Source: Bacillota bacterium
Lineage (GTDB): Bacteria > Bacillota > SHA-98 > UBA4971
Assembly: GCA_030024085.1 (NCBI GenBank)
Contig: JASEJE010000010.1
Coordinates: 24,132 to 88,131, forward strand
DNA: 64,000 nt
Direction: 5' to 3'
Shown piece by piece: positions 21,015 to 64,000 of this stretch (position 1 is its first letter; every line of letters starts with the position of its first letter). Under the pieces are notes generated by a model that was given only the letters and a program-made list of their open reading frames with translations, was not told the DNA's origin and made no database searches. The position numbers were made by a program, and so were the translations under genes.

Positions 21015-21965
21015 ATGGGCATAGTGGATAACGACGAGCTGTGCGGGAGAGTGGCCAGGCTATACTACGGGGACGAACTGACTCAGGCAGAGATCGCTCA
21101 GCTGCTGGGGGTTTCTCGGTCCGTGGTCTCCAGATGTCTCTCTAGAGCTCTGGCGAGGCGCCTCGTTCAAATCGAGGTGCTTGACCCTGAGGAGGTCTGC
21201 AGGGAGCGGGCTGAGATCATCAGACAGCTATTCGGGCTACGGAAGGTGATAGTCGTACCGAACTCCGAGGACGACGACGATCAAGAAGCGAAACAGGCCC
21301 TGAGCGATGCAGCGACGGCATATCTCGATGGCATAGTCCGCGATGGCAGCGTGATAGCGGTTTCCTGGGGCACGACCATGTACGAGGTGGCCAAGCGCCT
21401 CGTCCCGCGACGCCTCTCCGGGGTCAGGGTCGTTCAATTGAACGGGAACGCTAGAGCAAGCCGGACTCACGAAAACGCCGCGACCATATTGATGAACTTC
21501 GCCCAGGCCTACTCCGCGGAGTCGTATTCGCTGCCGGTTCCCGCCGTCACCCGCAGCAGGGCCTTGTCCGCTCAGCTGCTCGCCGACCCGACCATCAGCT
21601 TTACCATCGACCTGGCGAGACAGGCGGACATTGCCATCTTCAGCATTGGCTTCCCCGACGCGCGCTCGATCTTGGTGGAAGCCGGGTACGTCACTGTCCA
21701 GGAAATAGCGGAGCTCGTTGCCCACGGGGCGGTGGGCGACGTCTGCTCGAGGTACTTCGGCATGAACGGGGAAGTCATCGATCCCGACCTCGACGCGCGG
21801 ACGATAGGGATCGGCCTCGACGATCTCCGGAACAAGGAACACTCCATCGGGGTCGCTGCCGGCGCCCACAAGGCGCGAGGGATTGTGGGTGCTGCCAGGG
21901 GCGGGTATGTGAACACGCTCATCATAGACGAACTCGCGGCCCTCGAGATGATGCGCCTCGTCTGA
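21015..21965 (+). CDS. SorC/DeoR-family transcriptional regulator
   Basis: VARLYY..ELTQAEIA..LGVSR; SWGTTM; GAVGDVCSRYF; LIIDE. Confidence 0.92.
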   Translation: MGIVDNDELCGRVARLYYGDELTQAEIAQLLGVSRSVVSRCLSRALARRLVQIEVLDPEEVCRERAEIIRQLFGLRKVIVVPNSEDDDDQEAKQALSDAATAYLDGIVRDGSVIAVSWGTTMYEVAKRLVPRRLSGVRVVQLNGNARASRTHENAATILMNFAQAYSAESYSLPVPAVTRSRALSAQLLADPTISFTIDLARQADIAIFSIGFPDARSILVEAGYVTVQEIAELVAHGAVGDVCSRYFGMNGEVIDPDLDARTIGIGLDDLRNKEHSIGVAAGAHKARGIVGAARGGYVNTLIIDELAALEMMRLV

Positions 21966-54594: not shown

Positions 54595-55782
54595 TTACGG
54601 CGCCTTCTTTTCCAGTGTCTCGAGGACCTCGCCGTACCTGTCGGGCTTCACCCAGAGGAGCTTTAGCTGATCCCAGAAGGCAGCCTGGAACTCTCCACCG
54701 ATGGTGTCGTCCATGTCGGCGAGAGCCACGCGGCCAGTAAGAAGCTCCGCCACGCCCCTGTCAACAGGCGGATAGGCATCCAGTGGGACCTTCGTGTATG
54801 TGGCTATGTGTCCGCCCTTCGTCACCTGGACCTCCTGCCCCTTGGTGGCGAGGAACTGGATGAGCTTCTTCGCTTCCTCGGGGTGCTTGGTGTACGCCGG
54901 CACGAAGGCGTAGTCGGCGCCGAAGACTATGCCCCGCGCTCCAGGCAGCGAGAACACGCCGAGGTCGCTCGGGTCCTTCACCATTCCCGTTATCCAGCTT
55001 CCCATGAAATAGAGGCCGTAGTCGCCCTGCCACCACAGCTCCAGAGCCTGGGTCCACTCGACGGGCTCGCCGAAGCGCTTGGCCTTGAGGAGCGGCACGA
55101 GCCTGCCCTCGAAGATTCCCTTGACTACCGGGTCGGTCCATGCGATGGTGCCGGCGGTCAGCTCCTTGTGCAGCTGCGGGCCGCCGAACGTCGCGATGAA
55201 GTGCTCAGTCACGTCGGAGAGCGGCCAGCCAACGCCGTTACCGCTCGCGATGGGAGCCTTGATGCCGGGGATCTTCGCTATCTTGTCGAGAAGCGCGGTG
55301 AACTCATCCCAGGTGGTGGGCGGAGTCAGGCCGTGCTTCTGGAAGAAAGACTTCCGGTACCAGAAGCCGGGCTTCACCTTGCCCGTGTACGCTATGCCGT
55401 AGAGCTTGCCTCGTACCTTGAGGCCGTCGAGCGAGCCTGGCAGGTAGTCGCTGTCCTTGATGAGACCTGTGAGATCCATCGCGTGTCCGGCCTCGCCCTG
55501 CTTGGCGACGAACCATGACCACATGAAGATGACGTCGCCGGGCGCGGTCTTCGCGGAGAACTGTGCCGGCAACTGGGCCGAGAGGTCTTCAGCACGGTAG
55601 ATGCGGTAGTCGACCTTTATCCCCGTCTCCTTCTCGAATGCCTGAAGGACCGGCACGAATGCCTCCATCTCCGCTCCGGACCACGGACCTATGCACGTCA
55701 GGGTCTTCGCGTCAGCAGCAAGTGCCGCGCACGTGGCTACGAGAAACAGCGCGCACGCCACGAGCAGAATCCTCTTAAACAC
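54595..55782 (-). CDS. Carbohydrate (alpha-glucoside/glucose-type) ABC substrate-binding protein
   Basis: Signal peptide; GPWSGAE...F, P.TWDEF, GWPLSD..E, FMGSWI. Confidence 0.88.
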   Translation of the reverse strand: MFKRILLVACALFLVATCAALAADAKTLTCIGPWSGAEMEAFVPVLQAFEKETGIKVDYRIYRAEDLSAQLPAQFSAKTAPGDVIFMWSWFVAKQGEAGHAMDLTGLIKDSDYLPGSLDGLKVRGKLYGIAYTGKVKPGFWYRKSFFQKHGLTPPTTWDEFTALLDKIAKIPGIKAPIASGNGVGWPLSDVTEHFIATFGGPQLHKELTAGTIAWTDPVVKGIFEGRLVPLLKAKRFGEPVEWTQALELWWQGDYGLYFMGSWITGMVKDPSDLGVFSLPGARGIVFGADYAFVPAYTKHPEEAKKLIQFLATKGQEVQVTKGGHIATYTKVPLDAYPPVDRGVAELLTGRVALADMDDTIGGEFQAAFWDQLKLLWVKPDRYGEVLETLEKKAP

Positions 55783-55848
55783 GGTTTTTCGCCCTCCCTT
55801 TTCGTTGTAAAATGTCGCAAGTCTCCCCGACCATCAACTCCGGCTCGC

Positions 55849-56041
55849 CTAAGTGTGGGTTCAGAAATCACCGCCACTTTTCCAGGGTTGCCGGTACTGC
55901 CCTCCGGGGACGGCGCGTGCGGTGAGATGCGTTCGAATTTGGCGCTTAAGGCTAGCCAGATTCTCGACGCCCCGCCCTAGCAAGCACCGGCAACCCGGAG
56001 TCTTCTCCCGAACCGGCATGGATTTTTGAACTCACACTTAG
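55849..56041 (-). mobile_element. MITE-like element, type-2 termini (193 bp)
   Basis: TIR CTAAGTGTGGGTTCAGAAATC ... GATTTTTGAACTCACACTTAG (21 bp, 2 mismatches). The core closely matches the reverse complement of 58705-58820. Confidence 0.8.
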
Positions 56042-56221
56042 CTCCATCGGGCACATGGTACACGCAGTTTCTCCCGCTGTCACCTCCCCGGCCGGAAGCC
56101 ATCCGGCGCTTCCGTGCTCTCTGAGTCTCCCCACACCCAAAGCCGTGGGGTGGGGCCTCCGGCCTCGTCGATCCCGGCACCCTGCCGCCTCCCCCGGGCT
56201 CTCGCCGTCCCTTGCGATGGG

Positions 56222-56414
56222 CCAGGCGAGAGTTGGGAAACCGCCGCCACTTTTCCAGGGGTTGCCGGTATTGCACTCGGGAGACGGCGCGCCTGCGGCG
56301 CGCCTCGTTGCCTTTGGCATTCAGGTCTGCCAAATCGAGAGCGTCCCGTTGTGCAAGCAGCGACAACCTGGAAGACTCCCCCAAAGAGGCATGGATTTGT
56401 GAAGTCACACCTGG
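56222..56414 (-). mobile_element. Second type-2 MITE-like copy (193 bp)
   Basis: CCAGG...CCGCCACTTTTCCAGGGGTTGCCGGTATTGC...GGCATGGATTTGTGAAGTCACACCTGG; same length and layout as 55849-56041. Confidence 0.72.
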
Positions 56415-56681
56415 GCCATCCCGGGTCCTGGCGGCATTCGTTTCCGGTTGCAGCCGAGTCGCTCTAGCCCCAGTGGGGCAGCTACAAGGCCCTTGTGACT
56501 TATTGACGCCCGATGCCGCCTGCAGGAGCGGCTCCGTAGCCCCCGACCTCAAGGCTGGCGTATCGGGCCAGTGCCCCGGGACCGACCTTGCCCCAGCTCT
56601 GAACGGCGGGGCCCACGGCGGCTACACTCCGGTCAAGAAGGTCGGCTCACAAACTACTCCCCCAGGCCCCTGCTGGAGGCG

Positions 56682-56818
56682 TGCAAGCGGTTGCACGAAA
56701 CCTGCCAATGCACGGCGCCGTAATATAGAACGATGTCAACGGGCTCGCCAACCATGGTGATGCAACCGGTTGCACTATGTGCGTTATGATAATTCGCCGT
56801 GCGGTCCCTGAATCCTGC
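56682..56818 (-). promoter_or_regulatory. sigH-like promoter plus two LacI-type operators for the ABC-treT operon
   Basis: Minus strand GCAGGATTC-N12-GCGAATTA (56818-56790). Palindromes TGCAACCGGTTGCA (56761-56774) and TGCAAGCGGTTGCA (56682-56695). Confidence 0.6.
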
Positions 56819-56876
56819 CTTGCGGGGGAGATCCGTGAGTGGTTTTTTTCATGCGTGTGCTCGCACCTGTCTCTGA

Positions 56877-58127
56877 CTACCAGACGATCTTCAGCAGCCA
56901 GAATACGGTGCCGCGGTCCCAGCCGAGGTCCCACGGCACGTGATAGCGGTCGGCGGTGTGGGAGTTGACTACCACGTAGCCGTGGGAGTCGGTGCCGGTT
57001 ACCACTGCCATGTGCTCAATGCGTCCGCGTTCCTCATAGGCTATGACATCGCCTGGGTGGAGGGCGCCGATGGGACCGTACGGGAGCTTTTCCGATGGTG
57101 AGACCACATCGGGGTATGTGCCGCGGGCGACCCTGACGGCACGGCCGCTGTTGATAAGGAATCCGGCGAGCGCCTCGGCCTGAGCCCAGGCGCGGCTTGC
57201 CCCTGCCCCGGAGCCTCTGAAGGTGTAACGCCAGGTCCAGTCCATGGGAAGGCGTCCGGCCTCCGGGTCGCCGAGCACCTGGGACACGAAGTTACTGCAG
57301 TCCCCGCCGAGGCCCGTGAAGTCCTTGTACATGGGGTTATACTCGCGGTTGTTCCCACAGCCCCAGGCGGACCCGCAGTATTCGTCGGCGTACGCCACCG
57401 CTCGATCCCTGTCGTAGCGGGGCGTTGAGGGGAGACCCGGGGGGCCTGTGCTCTCCGGCTCTCCGGGTGATGCACTGACGCCTGCCTGAACGGTCAGGCC
57501 CTGGAGTTTGCTGTCTTGCCCGTCCCTGTGGACCACCGTTGCAGGGAGGATTCCGTCTGACACGATGGCCGGCCTCACGTTGCCTACGACAGAGTCCTCG
57601 TCAAGGGGGTCGGTGTACCAGTCGCGCCTTATGACCCACGCGCCGTCCCGCCGCACGAGTTCCGTGAAATGGCGGGTGCCGATGCCGAAGCGGTCGGGCG
57701 GGGCCGTCGGATCGGCGTCGTAGATGTATGCATACTCGGCGCTCTGCCTGAGCCTGAGCCATGCCGCGTCCCCCTTGACCTCCGCGGAGTCCACGCTGAT
57801 CTCCACTGTCGTGCCGACAAACCGCACCGCCCGGGCTCGGCTCCAGGCCTCAACATACCTGATCCGCCGCTGCTCGCGGTCGAAAGCCCAGCGCCCGTAC
57901 CTGGACTCCAGGTCGTAATGGGACGCCAGGGCCTCGGCGTCGCCCTGGATGACCGACTGGGCGCGGTCGGAGAAGATCATATTGAGCCTCGTTATGAGTT
58001 CCCTGTCCAGTACTATGGAAGGGCTGCCGACGGTCTGGACCAGCATGGACGCGGCCACAGATGCGCATGCCGCGAACGCGAGAAGACACACCATAAACCT
58101 CCTGCGGCTCAGGACATACAGCCTCAT
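56877..58127 (-). CDS. Putative amidase domain (Amidase_6 / YhbB-like) protein, membrane-anchored
   Basis: N-terminal TM segment; YDRDRAVAYA..Y, YNP.Y.DF...GGDCSNFVSQ, GDVIAY, HMAVV, VNSHTADRYHVPW. Confidence 0.85.
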   Translation of the reverse strand: MRLYVLSRRRFMVCLLAFAACASVAASMLVQTVGSPSIVLDRELITRLNMIFSDRAQSVIQGDAEALASHYDLESRYGRWAFDREQRRIRYVEAWSRARAVRFVGTTVEISVDSAEVKGDAAWLRLRQSAEYAYIYDADPTAPPDRFGIGTRHFTELVRRDGAWVIRRDWYTDPLDEDSVVGNVRPAIVSDGILPATVVHRDGQDSKLQGLTVQAGVSASPGEPESTGPPGLPSTPRYDRDRAVAYADEYCGSAWGCGNNREYNPMYKDFTGLGGDCSNFVSQVLGDPEAGRLPMDWTWRYTFRGSGAGASRAWAQAEALAGFLINSGRAVRVARGTYPDVVSPSEKLPYGPIGALHPGDVIAYEERGRIEHMAVVTGTDSHGYVVVNSHTADRYHVPWDLGWDRGTVFWLLKIVW

Positions 58128-58229
58128 GCGCCACACCCTTCTTCCCGGCAAGGCCCATCGTTTCGCTCTCTCCCTGATGTATATGCCCCACGGACTGCGA
58201 ATAAGAGATTGACGGGGGACGGAAGTGAC

Positions 58230-58661
58230 ATGTGGACTGTGCTCGTGGCGCTATTCGGCGCGTTGTGCTGGGGGATAGCGCCGATATTCGGGAAGATCGG
58301 CCTTGCACGGGTGGACCCTCTTGCCGGGCTGTGTCTGCGCACCCTCATTGCCTCCGGCATAGTCACAGGCTGGCTCCTCGTCAGCGGGGAACTGCGGGCG
58401 ATGGAAACGGTGTCAAGCAGGGCATGGCTCTTCATCGCCCTCGAGGCCATCCTGGCGACGCTCGTGGGGGACCTTGCTTATTACGCGGCGCTGAAGTGTG
58501 GAGGGGCAGCGCAGGTCACACTCGTGATGTCCACCGCCCCCCTTTTCACGCTGATAATAGCTGTGGTGTATCTTCGTGAGGTCACCACGTGGGCGCAGGT
58601 GATCGGCGCCGTGCTCATCGTGTGTGGGCTATTCCTTGTGAGCCTCGGCCCGCAGGTCTAG
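58230..58661 (+). CDS. EamA/DMT-family small transporter
   Basis: ALCWGIAPIFGKIGL..VDP, YYAALK.G....V, APLFT, IGAVLIV.G. Confidence 0.88.
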   Translation: MWTVLVALFGALCWGIAPIFGKIGLARVDPLAGLCLRTLIASGIVTGWLLVSGELRAMETVSSRAWLFIALEAILATLVGDLAYYAALKCGGAAQVTLVMSTAPLFTLIIAVVYLREVTTWAQVIGAVLIVCGLFLVSLGPQV

Positions 58662-58870
58662 GTGTGGCGCCATAAGTTTGCGACACTTTTTCTGACGGCG
58701 TTGGGGTTGCCGGTGCTTGCTAGGGCGGGGCGTCTAGAATCTGGCTAGCCTTAAGCGCCAAATTCGAACGAGGCGCGCCGCAAGCGCGCCGTCCCCGGAG
58801 GGCAACACCGGCAACGCTGGAGAGGACTTGCGCGCTGAAAAGTAGCGCGAATTTGTGGCGATCTACTTAG
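58658..58870 (+). mobile_element. MITE-like element, type-1 termini
   Basis: CTAGGTGTGGCGCCATAAGTTTGCGACACTTTT ... AAAAGTAGCGCGAATTTGTGGCGATCTACTTAG (imperfect ~30-bp TIR). Begins at the EamA stop codon. Confidence 0.8.
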
Positions 58871-58923
58871 TACTGCTCTGCCACATATGGAGCGCATGGT
58901 AGTGCCGTCACTTGAGCTGACGG

Positions 58924-59361
58924 GTGACATACGTCACGGGTCCCTCCGGAACCGTTCCCCACGTCACGCCGGAGAACCGTCGCGTGATGTACATCACCGG
59001 TCCGGTGCTTACCCGTTCCGTGCGTCACACATGCAAGGGGAAGGATGACGCACGTCACTCGTCAGGCTCTTCTCGTTCCATACGTCACGCATCCGCGGCC
59101 GATCGGTGACGTACATCATCGTTGCCGCCTCACCCGTTCCCTGCGTCACGGGTTCTCCATGAATCGTTCCATACGTCACTCGTCGAAGCGGGACGGGTGA
59201 CGTACATCACGGGTTCCTCCTGAGCCGTTCCCTACGTCATCATTGAGAGCCATCCAGTGATGTACATCACCGGTCCCGGCCTTACCCGTTCCCTGCATCA
59301 CGCATCGAAACTGACTGCTGACGTACATCACTCTTTCTGCGGTACCCGTTCCGTACATCAC
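58924..59361. repeat. Phased array of 15 motifs (A: GTGAYRYACRTCAC near-palindrome; B: YCGTTCCNYRCRTCAC) separated by variable 14-17 bp spacers
   Basis: Motif ends at 58937, 58967, 58997, 59028, 59058, 59088, 59119, 59149, 59179, 59210, 59240, 59270, 59301, 59331, 59361. Confidence 0.92.
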
Positions 59362-59437
59362 GGGTTTCCTGTGTTGCGCGGCCGGCTTGAGCGCGGCGGT
59401 GGGGGTCGAACGCGTGATCAGCGCAGGGCTATCGCGA

Positions 59438-59596
59438 TCAGCGCAGAGCTATGACGACCCGTTTCTGCTGTTGTGGGCGTAGCTTGATGAGGCCGAGCTC
59501 CGCTTTCACGATGGTGTCCACAGGTATGCCCGTCCTGAGGGAAAGCTCCTTCGCGCTTATCCCCGCCTTTTCGCGTAGCTTCAGCAGGGGAGTCAT
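59438..59596 (-). CDS. Small XRE/Cro-like helix-turn-helix protein (52 aa, below the ORF-track cutoff)
   Basis: RBS AGGAAGGTGGTGG, then MTPLLKLREKAGISAKELSLRTGIPVDTIVKAELGLIKLRPQQQKRVVIALR*. The LR...G.S..EL...GI...TI...E.G pattern fits XRE HTH domains. Confidence 0.75.
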   Translation of the reverse strand: MTPLLKLREKAGISAKELSLRTGIPVDTIVKAELGLIKLRPQQQKRVVIALR

Positions 59597-59755
59597 AATA
59601 CCACCACCTTCCTACGATAGTTGCCATTACCAGTATAGGCAGGCTCTTCATAACATATGCACGGGGTGCCGGGACAATGCCTGGCGCCGGAGTTGCCGTC
59701 CTGAAAGCCGGACCGGCAGTCCGGAGGATGTTCTCGAAAAAGTCCGGCGGCAGAC

Positions 59756-59819
59756 TTGACAGAGAACCCGGCGGGCTATAGAATAACTCCAAATACGAGC
59801 TATGTTAGGAAACCTCACA
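59756..59819 (+). promoter_or_regulatory. sigA promoter and GlnR/TnrA box of glnRA
   Basis: TTGACA-N17-TAGAAT (59756-59784); TGTTA-GGAAACC-TCACA (59803-59819) fits TGTNA-N7-TNACA. Confidence 0.85.
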
Positions 59820-59845
59820 TGACCCCACGAGCGACAGACGCGCGG

Positions 59846-59973
59846 GCGGATGAGCGATTTGAGCGGATGAGCGATTTGAGCGGATGAGCGGTTTGAGCGA
59901 ACGGCGATTGCGTGAACGGGCGCGCAGCCTGGCCAGGCGGCGCCGCCAGCTGCCAGCTGCCAGCTGCCAGCTG
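59846..59973 (+). repeat. Tandem repeats in the glnR leader
   Basis: GCGGATGAGCGRTTTGA x3 (59846-59896) and GCCAGCT x4 (about 59945-59972). Confidence 0.8.
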
Positions 59974-60026
59974 CGAGCAGTGCGGAGAGCGGTGTGCCCA
60001 GTGACGCGGCGAAGGGGTGATGAGAA

Positions 60027-60434
60027 ATGGACGTCCCACGGGACGCGCCGGTCTATACCATTGGCGCGGTGCGGCGCCTCACCGGCCTGACAGATCGTCA
60101 GATCCGCTACTACGACGAAACGGGTCTCGTTGTGCCGGCGCGCACCCCCGGCAACCAGCGCCTGTATTCAGAGGCTGATGTGGGCGCTTTGAGAGAGATC
60201 AAGCACCTTCTGGCGGAAGGGCGGCGGATCGACGAGGTGAGGGCCATACTGGCTCTTCGGAGTCGAGCGCGAGCGGCGAGCCGCGAGGACCTCATGAAAT
60301 CTAGCGATGCCGGGATGCGCTTTGGCGAGGCGGCCGCGCTCAGATCCATCTACCCGCTGGCAAACCGTCCCGAGCTCCTGCGGGCCATAGACACCCGCAG
60401 AAATCACACCCCCGGGACAAGAAATGAGAAATGA
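60027..60434 (+). CDS. glnR: MerR-family nitrogen regulator GlnR
   Basis: PVYTIG.V..LTGLT.RQIRYY...GLV.P.RT.GNQRLYS; lies upstream of glnA with a GlnR box. Confidence 0.88.
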   Translation: MDVPRDAPVYTIGAVRRLTGLTDRQIRYYDETGLVVPARTPGNQRLYSEADVGALREIKHLLAEGRRIDEVRAILALRSRARAASREDLMKSSDAGMRFGEAAALRSIYPLANRPELLRAIDTRRNHTPGTRNEK

Positions 60435-60446
60435 GGAGGAAGCGAA

Positions 60447-61778
60447 ATGCCGAGTCTCACGAAAGAAGACGTGCTGAAAAAGGCGGAAGAACTCAGGGTC
60501 AGATTCGTCCAACTGCAGTTCACTGACATCCTCGGCGTCATCAAGAACGTGGCCATCCCTGTGGAGCAGCTCGAAAGGGCGCTCGACAACGAGATCATGT
60601 TCGATGGGTCGTCCATCGAGGGGTTCGTGCGAATCGAGGAGTCCGACATGTACCTGCATCCGGATCCGGCGACGTTTGCGATCTTCCCGTGGAACGGCGA
60701 CGATGCGGTGACCGCCCGGCTCATCTGTGACATCTACAACCCCGACGGGACGCCGTTCGAGGGCTGTCCCAGGCATACGCTGAAGAAGGTCCTGGCCGAG
60801 GCGGAGAGCATGGGCTTCACGTTCGTTGCAGGCCCCGAGCCTGAGTTCTTCCTGTTCACCAGGGACGACGCCGGCAAGCCGACGACCAGGACTCACGACC
60901 AGGCCAGCTACTTCGACCTCGCTCCACTCGACCGGGGCGAGCGCGCGCGCCAGGACATGGTGGTCATGCTTCAGAAAATGGGGTTCGAGATCGAGGCGTC
61001 GCATCATGAGGTCGCGCCGGGGCAGCACGAGATAGACTTCAAGTATACGTACGGCCTCACAACGGCCGATAACGTCGCCACGTTCCGCTTCGTGGTGCGC
61101 ACAGTGGCTCTCGCTCACAACCTCCACGCGACATTCATGCCGAAGCCGGTGTTCGGCATCAACGGCTCGGGCATGCACACGCATCAGTCGTTGTTCAAGG
61201 GCGATGATAACGCGTTCTACGATCCTGACGCGCCGAACGGGCTCTCGGAAGTCGCGCTGCACTATATCGGGGGCCTCATGAAGCACGCCCCAGGCTTTAC
61301 CGCCATTACGAACCCCCTCATAAACTCCTATAAGAGGCTGGTGCCGGGGTACGAGGCTCCGGTATACATCGCCTGGTCGGAGAGGAACAGGAGCCCGCTC
61401 ATCCGGGTTCCGGCGGCGCGCGGAAAACATACCAGAATCGAACTTCGGAGCCCCGACCCGTCGTGCAACCCCTATCTAGCCCTGGCGGTGACATTGAAGG
61501 CCGGCCTCGACGGGATCAGGAACGAGATTGTCCCGCCAGACCCGGTGAATCTGAATGTCTACGGGCTGTCAGGGGCCGAGCGCGAGGAGATGGGCATAAG
61601 GAGCCTGCCGGGCAGCATCGTGGAGGCCATCGAGCGCCTCAAGGCCGACGAGGTTATCGCGGGCACCCTGGGACCGCATATCGTGAACAGGTTCGTGGAG
61701 GCGAAGGAGATCGAGTGGGACATCTACAGGACGCAGGTCCACGCGTGGGAGATCGAGCAGTACTTGAACGTCTTCTGA
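60447..61778 (+). CDS. glnA: Glutamine synthetase type I
   Basis: [70 protein letters not shown]. Confidence 0.98.
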
Positions 61779-61780
61779 TC

Positions 61781-61965
61781 CTGAGTATGGCGGCGTAAGT
61801 CTGCGCCACTTTTCCTGATGGTGTTGGGGTTGCCGGTGATTGCACGAGGGGTGTCAAAATCCGCGTACTTGCCCGACGGGCCGGATTCTGGCGAAGCGCG
61901 CCCCGCCTGGGGCGCCGTCCCCGAGTGGCAACACCGGCAACCCAACAGCCGCTGGAAAACTGGCA
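61781..61965 (+). mobile_element. MITE-like element (type-1 left end plus core)
   Basis: CTGAGTATGGCGGCGTAAGTCTGCGCCACTTTTCCTGATGGTGTTGGGGTTGCCGGTG...GCAACACCGGCAACCC. Confidence 0.72.
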
Positions 61966-61978
61966 GGAACTAACGGAC

Positions 61979-62086
61979 GAGACTGTTGATTTACTCCACT
62001 TTATGGCAACGCAGCTCGGTGGAATCCCGGAAAACGGTCGCTGCCCACGGCCAAACTGGTAGCTACTGGGGAAAATCAACGGTCTC
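61979..62086. mobile_element. 108-bp inverted-repeat-bounded element of a second family
   Basis: GAGACTGTTGATTT ... AAATCAACGGTCTC; related copy in the opposite orientation at about 33331-33435. Confidence 0.55.
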
Positions 62087-62248
62087 ACGGACTTTCACTT
62101 AGTTCATGATCACCATGATCACCCCGGCACCGCCAGAGCCCAGGGCCGTCGGTTCGCAGCCAGCCCGCATGCGGGAGTGGCTGGGTCCCCGCCACCTGTT
62201 TCGGCTCCGGTCGTTTCACATCTGCCTGCGTGCGACCGCGGCCCGCCG

Positions 62249-62710
62249 CTACGAGCCGGCCGAAGGTTGGGGTTCCGGAGCCCCCACCACCTGGGTGTTG
62301 GCCCACTTGTCGCCGAGTCGGCGGCCGGCGGGGTCGGTGAACACCAGTACGACTTCGATGATGCCGATTATGCCCCCGACTATCGGGCTCAGCACCCATC
62401 CCGCAAGGGGTATCGCAGCCAGAAGAGAGCCGATGGAGAGGGTGGCGTTGCGCTTTATCGAAACGGTCATGTCAACGTCTCCGCCCCCCAGGTTGACCAC
62501 CTGCAGGCTCATCAGCTTCTTACCGATGCTCCTGTTCTTCCATTGCGCGTCCTTTGTCAACTGAAACATGAGCGCATCTTTCGTGAGGGTATACGCAGCC
62601 CCCAGCAAACCGCCAAGGATTGGAATCAGAATCGTAAGGATCCCTGCAATGACGCCGTCGATAAGCGCGGCCACAAATCGCTTTCCAAGGTCAGCTTTCG
62701 GGTAGTTCAA
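62249..62710 (-). CDS. RDD-family membrane protein
   Basis: GGAGG RBS with TTG start; A.LGKRFVAALID, RSIGKKLM.L.VV, KRN, RRLGDKWANTQVV. Confidence 0.85.
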   Translation of the reverse strand: MNYPKADLGKRFVAALIDGVIAGILTILIPILGGLLGAAYTLTKDALMFQLTKDAQWKNRSIGKKLMSLQVVNLGGGDVDMTVSIKRNATLSIGSLLAAIPLAGWVLSPIVGGIIGIIEVVLVFTDPAGRRLGDKWANTQVVGAPEPQPSAGS

Positions 62711-63304
62711 GACATCACCTCCTTCCATCCCCTGATACCAAATATACGCTATCATTTGAGTTTTTCCTCCACTGCTGTTGGATTCCAGGGCTGTGAACGC
62801 ACAAGCGGGTGCGGTCGGCCTCCGTTAGCTGGAGTCCGCAGGTACGCTGAATGCCCGGCTCCCGGCTCCTGGCTCCCGGCCCTCCCGGGGCCCGGCTCCC
62901 GGGGCCGGGGGCCCGTACTCTTGTCGCACGGCTGGTGGACCGGGGACACACAGAATGGTTTTTCCTCGACCAGCGCCTCGGCGACCCCGTCAACTGCCAG
63001 GCCTTGCTCCCCAGCGAGCATACCGGCACCCACTGTGACGCTCCTGGACACATCCTGTCCTGAGGGACCGCGGTCGGCGGCCTGCCCTCTCTTGTGGGGC
63101 AGGCGGCATCTCTTCTAGTGTGTGTATACTCTGTCCAAAACGGGCATATTATGGCAGAGAAAACTGCGTGCGGCCCGGGAGGAACCACGACACATGTGAC
63201 GAAGTGACGACACTACGCGCCTTCCTGGGGAGGCATTCGACCTGCGAGGGGGCGCTTTTGTGTGGGGCAGGCCCCCGCGCGAGCATTCGGAGGTGGTTGG
63301 CGAG

Positions 63305-64000
63305 ATGTTGTTTTCGAGGAGTCCACGGTTGCGAGCGCACCGTGCACGTGTGCTTTTCATGGCGGGCCTCGTGGCGGCGCTGGCGGCGATGATCGGGCTG
63401 CCGGGATCTCTACAGGCGGCCGCGCCCGAGATGAAGGCGCGTTCGGCCGTGCTCATGAGTGCCGAGACGGGTCAGGTCCTGTATGAGAAAGAGCCTGACA
63501 TGCGCGTGGCGCCTGCGAGCATAACCAAGGTCATGACGATGCTCCTCGCCATGGAGGCTGTGGACTCGAAGAAAGTCAGCCTTGATGACACGGTGACAAC
63601 GAGCACCGAGGCGAGCCAGATCGGCGGTTCACAGATCTGGCTTGCGGAGGGCGAGCAAATGAAGCTCGGCGACATGATGAAGGCCATTGCCATCGTCTCG
63701 GCGAACGACGCGGCATACGCGGTTTCCGAGTTCGTCGCCGGGAGCGCCGAGGACTTCGTGAACCAGATGAACGAGAAGGCCAGGGAGCTGGGGATGAACA
63801 ACACGCACTTCGAGAACCCCGACGGACTCCCGGCCCCGGACCACTACAGCACAGCCCGCGACATCGCCATCATGTCCCGCGAGCTGGTCACGAAGCATCC
63901 GAAGGTGCTCGAGTGGACGAGCGTCTGGACAGACACGCTCGAGCGGAAGGGTCCGAGGGTGCGGCAGGAGGAGTCCTTTCTCAGGAATACAAACGAGCTG
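63305..64000 (+). CDS. dacF: D-alanyl-D-alanine carboxypeptidase (peptidase S11, DacF-like), runs off the window edge
   Basis: Manual translation: signal peptide, SAVLM..ETGQVLYE, PASITKVMT (SxxK), GGSQIWL, VSANDA (SxN), FV..MNEKA.ELGM.NTHF.NPDGL. Confidence 0.88.
   Translation, partial: MLFSRSPRLRAHRARVLFMAGLVAALAAMIGLPGSLQAAAPEMKARSAVLMSAETGQVLYEKEPDMRVAPASITKVMTMLLAMEAVDSKKVSLDDTVTTSTEASQIGGSQIWLAEGEQMKLGDMMKAIAIVSANDAAYAVSEFVAGSAEDFVNQMNEKARELGMNNTHFENPDGLPAPDHYSTARDIAIMSRELVTKHPKVLEWTSVWTDTLERKGPRVRQEESFLRNTNEL

Follow-up and report, generated by a model that had tools for sequence, protein, structure and literature searches.

A right-truncated copy of a dispersed MITE-like element with a phased two-box array beside the glnR-glnA genes of a Bacillota bacterium

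The window analysed here is a 64,000-nucleotide stretch of contig JASEJE010000010.1 from a Bacillota bacterium (assembly GCA_030024085.1), and its feature under study is an array of 15 short boxes at positions 58924-59361 (438 bp, plus strand), situated near a gene for a small helix-turn-helix (HTH) protein. We found that the array is the core of a dispersed, non-coding element of the MITE (miniature inverted-repeat transposable element) kind, bounded by inverted repeats of ~23 bp, and that the segment 58870-59372 of the window is a right-truncated member of this family. The reading that we prefer, and in which we have moderate confidence, is that this truncated copy carries the array as the cis module of the element, where it likely serves as a docking platform. 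A site that looks custom-made for regulation or as a centromere is in fact one copy of a mobile repeat spread over the genome, and its recognition as such averts misannotation of the glnR-glnA neighbourhood.

The array was mapped by reading the region 58500-60100 of the window and locating every motif that ends in RYRTCAY. The box ends fall at positions 58937, 58967, 58997, 59028, 59058, 59088, 59119, 59149, 59179, 59210, 59240, 59270, 59301, 59331 and 59361, which gives steps of 30, 30 and 31 bp repeated four times and followed by two further steps of 30 bp, and the two box types follow each other in the order A B A B A B A B B A B A B A B. The seven A boxes are near-palindromes similar to GTGAYRYAYRTCAY, with the outline GTGA-N6-TCAC, and the eight B boxes (CGTTCC-NN-RYRTCAY) retain only the right half; the boxes are 14-16 nt long and are separated by spacers of 14-17 bp. 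The number of motifs, their A/B order and the 30/30/31 spacing claimed in the first-pass annotation of this DNA are confirmed by these motif-end positions, as is the claimed 273-bp (3x91) duplication, for which a repeat search of the window reported 76% identity between the halves (58919-59089 versus 59192-59362). In the window the half-box pattern was counted 51 times, as compared to 26.8 +/- 4.9 times in shuffled sequences (none of 100 shuffles gave as many), with the excess located in 58924-59361. Tandem Repeats Finder with a minimum score of 30 reported nothing within the array, to which it is blind because the whole units are too dissimilar. The open reading frames that cross the array in the window encode only 51-65 aa, in rotating frames.

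The genome from which the window was taken (G000; 3.11 Mb, 65 contigs, 63% G+C, estimated completeness 95.7%) contains 337 strict A or B boxes, 318 of them clustered. Chaining of the box ends on the B-box strand revealed 36 arrays in both orientations, and because the chaining tolerated steps of 28-33, off-lattice steps were detectable. Exactly 438 bp are spanned by 21 of the 36 arrays, and most of the others differ from this length by about ±61, ±91 or ±122 bp. A single 30/30/31 lattice fits 27/36 arrays and 451/470 detected boxes (these numbers, as well as the arm lengths below, are counts of copies or sequences and not of independent events).

Alignment of the flanks of the copies revealed that the array is the 438-bp core of an element of ~605-615 bp (605-614 bp between the ends of full copies), with a conserved left arm of 54 bp and, on the right, an arm of ~113 bp. 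Over their outer ~20-23 nt the arms are mutually inverse, i.e. they form terminal inverted repeats, and TA or a near-TA flanks most copies on both sides. Between the same arms the number of detected boxes ranges from 6 to 19 or more, the longer arrays growing leftward on the same lattice. Among the G000 copies with a detected repeat, the left arm has the modal length of 54 bp in 13/19 and a non-modal length in 6/19; of the right arms, 15/26 depart from their modal length. The family exhibits the characters by which MITEs are recognised, namely terminal inverted repeats and many dispersed small copies without an internal transposase gene, as well as those of a modular MITE, namely fixed ends around an internal repeat with a variable number of units. 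On contig C30 of G000 (~21831-21868) a full array element abuts a short element of 134 bp that has identical ends to its own, and the TA is shared between them.

In the window, the left junction of the array element is a TA at 58868-58869; in most copies of the family TA or a near-TA likewise precedes the left inverted repeat. This repeat (58870-58892, plus strand) has one mismatch to the left-end consensus of the family and is the inverse of the right end; the 54-bp left arm (58870-58923, plus strand) contains it as well as a short palindrome just before box 1. Past the array, the window copy diverges from all full copies ~10 bases after the last box: the family sequence ends in a right-arm stub (59362-59372, plus strand), beyond which the other ~100 bp of this arm and the right inverted repeat are absent. 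Contigs of three read runs from different public studies (X1, X4 and X5) span the truncated junction, which the congener G004 has in common with the window; thus, the truncation is neither new nor an assembly artefact. None of the read-run contigs joins across the array element at the window locus, and the parts left uncovered by them were not interpreted.

The copy on contig C3 of G000 provides a comparison of a filled and an empty site. The filled site reads ...CACT-TA-[element]-CA-GTGCCC, and at the same point only one TA, directly before GTGCCC, is present in three congeners (G001, G003 and G006), with identical flanks and no element; G002 also lacks the element at this point, with a different left flank. 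This indicates insertion at TA with a 2-bp duplication, of which one base has since changed. The target-site duplication rests on this one filled/empty site, the only clean one, as empty-site comparisons for the copies on C11, C33 and C18 gave no clean boundaries. A duplication of 4 bp (YTAR), which fits only ~4 of 14 copies read by eye, was considered as well, and TA was preferred.

Searches in 40 relatives identified matches to the element in six of eight congeners and weak matches in two genomes of other families. At the window site, seven relatives have the transporter-HTH-glnR order without the array (five of them with 59-161 bp and no trace of the element, two with a ~85-bp left-end remnant), and one congener has the array. 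The element thus inserts at TA, duplicates it, and is gained, lost or resized among congeners, and its copies mark differences in gene order between them. Two loci show exchanged flanks: on G002:C123 the transporter flank of the window is followed by a copy 99% identical to the copy on contig C22 of G000 together with the flank of the latter (L002), and on G004:C38 the array at the HTH locus resembles the copy on contig C13 of G000, including a hairpin-type MITE in its left arm (L016/L036). These swaps could be due to ectopic recombination or conversion between copies, or to misassembly. On G021:C2 (L009), in a genome from outside the genus and from another family of the class, similar boxes form a short array (steps of 31, 30, 33, 60, 30 and 60 bp), which hints at a wider or older distribution.

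The 21 canonical copies can be aligned without gaps at a mean pairwise identity of 81.7% (boxes: 86.7%, spacers: 77.0%), and their spacers match position by position. The spacer sequence, described earlier as free, does differ from spacer to spacer inside one copy, but it is kept between the copies of the family. The family consensus compared with itself reaches 85% identity at offset 273, and the offsets 61, 91, 182 and 212 give 50-57%, which indicates that the canonical array consists of 6 + 9 boxes of a 273-bp nine-box repeat; judged from its sequence, this repeat in turn holds three old 91-bp sub-periods, whose spacers alone are ~40% identical at offset 91.

Comparison of variation in boxes and spacers suggests where selection acts. 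Among the paralogous copies the number of minor alleles per column is 0.32 in boxes versus 0.61 in spacers, for singletons and shared variants alike (binomial p ~1e-5). In nine orthologous pairs between G000 and G004, all of them supported by their flanks (C33/L020 and C5/L029 were left out, as their flanks gave no such support), there are 68 substitutions in 1720 box positions versus 97 in 1886 spacer positions, i.e. a ratio of 0.77 (Fisher p = 0.09), a weaker effect than among the paralogues, where the ratio is 0.52 (p = 0.015 for the difference). No small indels were placed in the 3606 aligned columns of these pairs, and lighter gap penalties gave two gap columns in one pair. In a congener copy whose blastn pieces show 72-81% identity with the copy in the window, 15 boxes were detected, and the lattice is intact at every detected step. 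Larger changes do occur between orthologues: the copy on contig C11 of G000 (238311-238748) and its counterpart on G002:C15 (L106), each with its arms intact, are exactly one nine-box repeat of 273 bp apart in length (15 versus 6 boxes), another pair differs by 121 bp, corresponding to four boxes, and one pair shows an off-lattice deletion of ~320 bp. When copies are counted, arm length changes more often than the array leaves the lattice. Outside the elements, four isolated A boxes were found in G000 versus ~3 predicted by a first-order Markov model. From these comparisons we infer that the boxes are constrained while the element spreads and that the constraint is much relaxed after a copy has been fixed. 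Such a pattern is more in line with a cis function that benefits the element than with a host function at the individual sites, and it argues against a purely neutral minisatellite.

Most likely the array is a cis-acting module selected during propagation of the element and not at the individual insertion sites. Its likeliest form would be a docking row for a dimeric DNA-binding protein, with one site every three helical turns, where the A boxes may act as full palindromic sites and the B boxes as half-sites accompanied by CGTTCC. Candidate binders include the mobilising transposase, an accessory protein of an autonomous element, or a host factor exploited by the element. A phased protein-docking platform is the best functional guess. 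The protein-loading platform proposed in the first-pass annotation agrees with the geometry, which is kept in copies only ~82% alike, and with the better conservation of the boxes, but the reading as a single-locus platform is refuted, given 36 dispersed arrays. The family provides a clean natural case of a transposon with a long, strictly phased two-box array; if a binder were found, it could offer a compact model of arrays of cis sites that aid or regulate transposition, and the array might also find use as a portable DNA scaffold with many sites.

A more elaborate variant, which we regard as a tentative possibility, is a mobile nucleoprotein platform, in which a helical oligomer of one protein would load onto the array, the DNA would wind round it, and the element would control its own transposition, e.g. 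by concentrating or titrating the transposase. The 273-bp repeat with its nine boxes corresponds to 26.0 turns of 10.5-bp DNA, with the boxes rotating by about -40 degrees and coming back into phase after nine. The existence of 36 arrays versus a handful of short array-less elements with the same ends in G000 would be explained by this variant.

Several observations weigh against a docking platform carried by the element, the reading that we prefer. G000 contains several elements of 121-145 bp with the same inverted repeats and no array (one of them consists of the inverted repeat and the right arm), which implies that the array is dispensable for the mobility defined by the inverted repeats and represents an added module. 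The 85% self-identity of the 273-bp duplication makes part of the lattice trivial, and the counts made on paralogues tally sequences and not independent events. The A/T content of the array shows no 10.1-bp periodicity (power 0.18 at 10.11 bp versus 4.7 at 5.06 bp), i.e. the DNA has no intrinsic wrapping signal. Furthermore, the search for an autonomous partner returned nothing with the ends of the family. The profile of the IS630-type DDE_3 domain (PF13358) gave no matches in G000, and in the congeners it gave weak fragments or unrelated transposases in 4/8, with no family ends beside them. A scan for the end pattern in nine genomes of the genus revealed pairs only ~130 bp or ~610-870 bp apart and none at 1-2.5 kb; a wider scan of genome contigs for the same end pattern reported 52 loci, of which most are chance matches in unrelated taxa, and the 14 loci read from Bacillota/Firmicutes metagenome-assembled genomes (MAGs) comprise only ~130-bp and ~610-bp pairs. 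No autonomous element with these ends was found among 17 genomes of the family, where the genomes scanned for a partner are draft assemblies of MAG grade, in which insertion sequences often stay unassembled. With a TA target and no DDE_3 transposase sharing the same ends, the element is IS630-like in target choice only.

A competing explanation is that a neutral, functionless minisatellite hitchhikes in the MITE, its lattice being frozen from ancient 91-bp and recent 273-bp duplications. The self-identity of the consensus array (85% at 273, 50-57% at 61, 91, 182 and 212), the shifts of box number by whole units, the lack of significance of the box-spacer difference in orthologous pairs (p = 0.09), the short elements that have the same ends and no array, and the decay of copies by deletion, as in the off-lattice loss of ~320 bp or the truncation in the window, all speak for it. 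On the other hand, the boxes have half as many variants per column as the spacers in the 21 paralogous copies (p ~1e-5), the three 91-bp sub-periods share only ~40% of their spacer positions and nevertheless keep the exact spacing, and 27/36 arrays have no off-lattice step despite 18% divergence, while arm lengths do vary (6/19 left and 15/26 right arms being non-modal). Moreover, the A/B alternation (period 2) is overlaid on the 31-bp step (period 3), and one duplication unit does not account for both. We consider this explanation improbable, though worth keeping in mind. Less plausible still is a platform domesticated by the host, i.e. a regulator of the Lrp/AsnC or CRP/FNR type acting on the ~36 arrays in nucleoid organisation or gene regulation. 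The three-turn spacing of palindromes recalls cooperative DNA-wrapping regulators, the outline GTGA-N6-TCAC of the A box points in the same direction, and G000 encodes one AsnC-type protein (C62, 108900-109112) and one clear CRP-type protein, besides weaker HTH_Crp_2 matches. However, the constraint on the boxes after insertion is weak, orthologues lose four or nine boxes or undergo off-lattice deletion, the window copy is truncated, two of the eight congeners have no match, and the isolated A boxes (4 versus ~3 expected) make no host regulon visible. The sole strong CRP-type HTH match in G000 (C3, 24428-24652) lies ~2 kb from the array at C3 21967-22404; as only one of 36 copies is concerned, this is probably a coincidence.

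The first-pass annotation had pictured a loading platform specific to this locus (centromere-, iteron- or operator-like) and served by the adjacent HTH protein. The gene in question (59438-59596, minus strand) encodes a 52-aa protein of the XRE type and is real: it matches Pfam HTH_3 with 23.9 bits (cut-off 23), its stop codon is 76 bp from the last box, and it is directed toward the array, as had been claimed. Its product is 52 aa long and ends in ...ALR in 9 of 10 loci read by tblastn; it is thus a genuine, conserved small gene of DNA-binding type between the transporter gene and glnR-glnA. The same gene is, however, single-copy in G000, which has 36 arrays, it is present in 16/18 genomes of the family, including genera without a match to the element, and seven relatives keep the gene order without the array, so that the proposed linkage of gene and array is refuted. 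A transposon end with its TA delimits the array, and no partition or replication gene is nearby; a centromere- or iteron-like site does not fit a dispersed, TA-flanked element that is bounded by inverted repeats and sits beside housekeeping genes. We find this locus-specific explanation barely credible. The HTH and glnR-glnA genes rather are old residents. The element inserted on the transporter side of the HTH gene, between these two genes, and the HTH gene is its neighbour and not a part of it.

The other alternative raised earlier, transcription of the array and its processing to ~30- or ~60-nt RNAs (CRISPR-like or dual-repeat RNA; CRISPR stands for clustered regularly interspaced short palindromic repeats), is very improbable in our opinion. 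Both strands fold better than shuffled sequences (z = -4.5 and -6.3), but seven copies of a self-complementary box pair with one another by construction, which makes good folding expected and uninformative, and the B boxes are unable to form a hairpin. No Rfam match was found in 55000-64000 (E <= 1) and no promoter-like site in or beside the array, and the spacers are conserved between copies instead of being unique to each. A CRISPR array was rejected on account of the boxes of only 14-16 nt and of the same spacer conservation (cas genes were not searched for).

Among known systems with comparable geometry, operator arrays of Lrp/AsnC proteins and sopC of the F plasmid consist of palindromic boxes at whole-turn spacing (~30-31 or 43 bp) on which dimers load cooperatively. 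The array of the element has such spacing and may work in a similar manner, an analogy of mode of action only; moreover, the Lrp/AsnC and sopC arrays are found at a single locus beside the gene of the binder or cargo, whereas the array described here is multi-copy and resides in a transposon. With respect to mobility, MITEs mobilised by IS630/Tc1-mariner transposases, e.g. those of the RUP/Correia type, have terminal inverted repeats, a TA duplication and no transposase gene in 100-200 bp, prefer targets like CTAG or TTAG and may land in stop codons. The array element shares with them the inverted repeats, the TA target, the TA duplication and the lack of a transposase gene, but differs in that those MITEs are short and have no internal array. 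BOX elements of Streptococcus pneumoniae have the structure boxA-(boxB)n-boxC with ~45-bp units and are thought to act via RNA structure; in contrast to the array element, they have no strict three-turn lattice of palindromic boxes, and their ends and mode of mobility differ. Both BOX and the array element have variable internal units between fixed ends, are dispersed and intergenic, and cluster with or insert into other MITEs (in part after the accessible sections of PMC10969869). In these sections, the same 2024 review (PMC10969869) names as MITEs the BOX, RUP, SPRITE, Correia and BrickBuilt elements, which have side-effects on regulation and are nested in one another.

The closest published parallel that we found is BrickBuilt of Porphyromonas gingivalis (Klein et al. 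2015, PMC4596501), which, according to the available portion of that report, is a dispersed, intergenic and non-coding MITE with small inverted-repeat ends, composed of a leader, a tail and a tandem module inside the element, with ~19 copies per genome and a narrow host range; in this module, copies of a 23-nt unit follow one another with no spacers between them. The array element resembles it in being dispersed and non-coding, with inverted-repeat ends and an internal repeat module, but differs, as far as this portion of the report goes, in its two alternating boxes, 14-17-bp spacers, 30/30/31 lattice and 273-bp repeat, and no sequence relation between the two is apparent on the same basis. 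A limited literature search revealed no description of the array family or of Limnochordia-type MITEs. The earlier remark that this is not a described element thus holds for the array family in the literature searched, but the kind, MITEs that hold a repeat module inside, has already been published, at least as presented in the available portion of PMC4596501.

The genes around the array in the window encode proteins of the Amidase_6, EamA and HTH_3 families, followed by the MerR-type glnR and glnA. The gene of the EamA-type transporter ends in a TAG stop codon (58659-58661), the TA of which (58659-58660) is the left junction of nested insertions. Between this stop codon and the array element lies a copy of ~207 bp (58661-58867) of a second, hairpin-type MITE, separate from the array element. 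In a congener contig the array element directly follows the TA of the transporter stop codon and the hairpin MITE is absent there; one contig of run X1 likewise joins 58660 to 58871, skipping the hairpin MITE, which is also missing at comparable junctions in congeners. The read depth of the hairpin MITE is hundreds-fold over that of its flanks. This MITE (~205 bp, between TA dinucleotides) represents a much more abundant family, with further copies in the window at ~55860-56400 and ~61820-61990. Additional repeats of the neighbourhood comprise two tandem repeats upstream of the MerR-type glnR, one at 59846-59899 (17 bp, 3.2 copies, 97% match) and one at 59945-59978 (7 bp, 4.9 copies), and a 20-bp direct repeat in two copies with 90% identity at 59413-59452, which overlaps the stop codon of the HTH gene.

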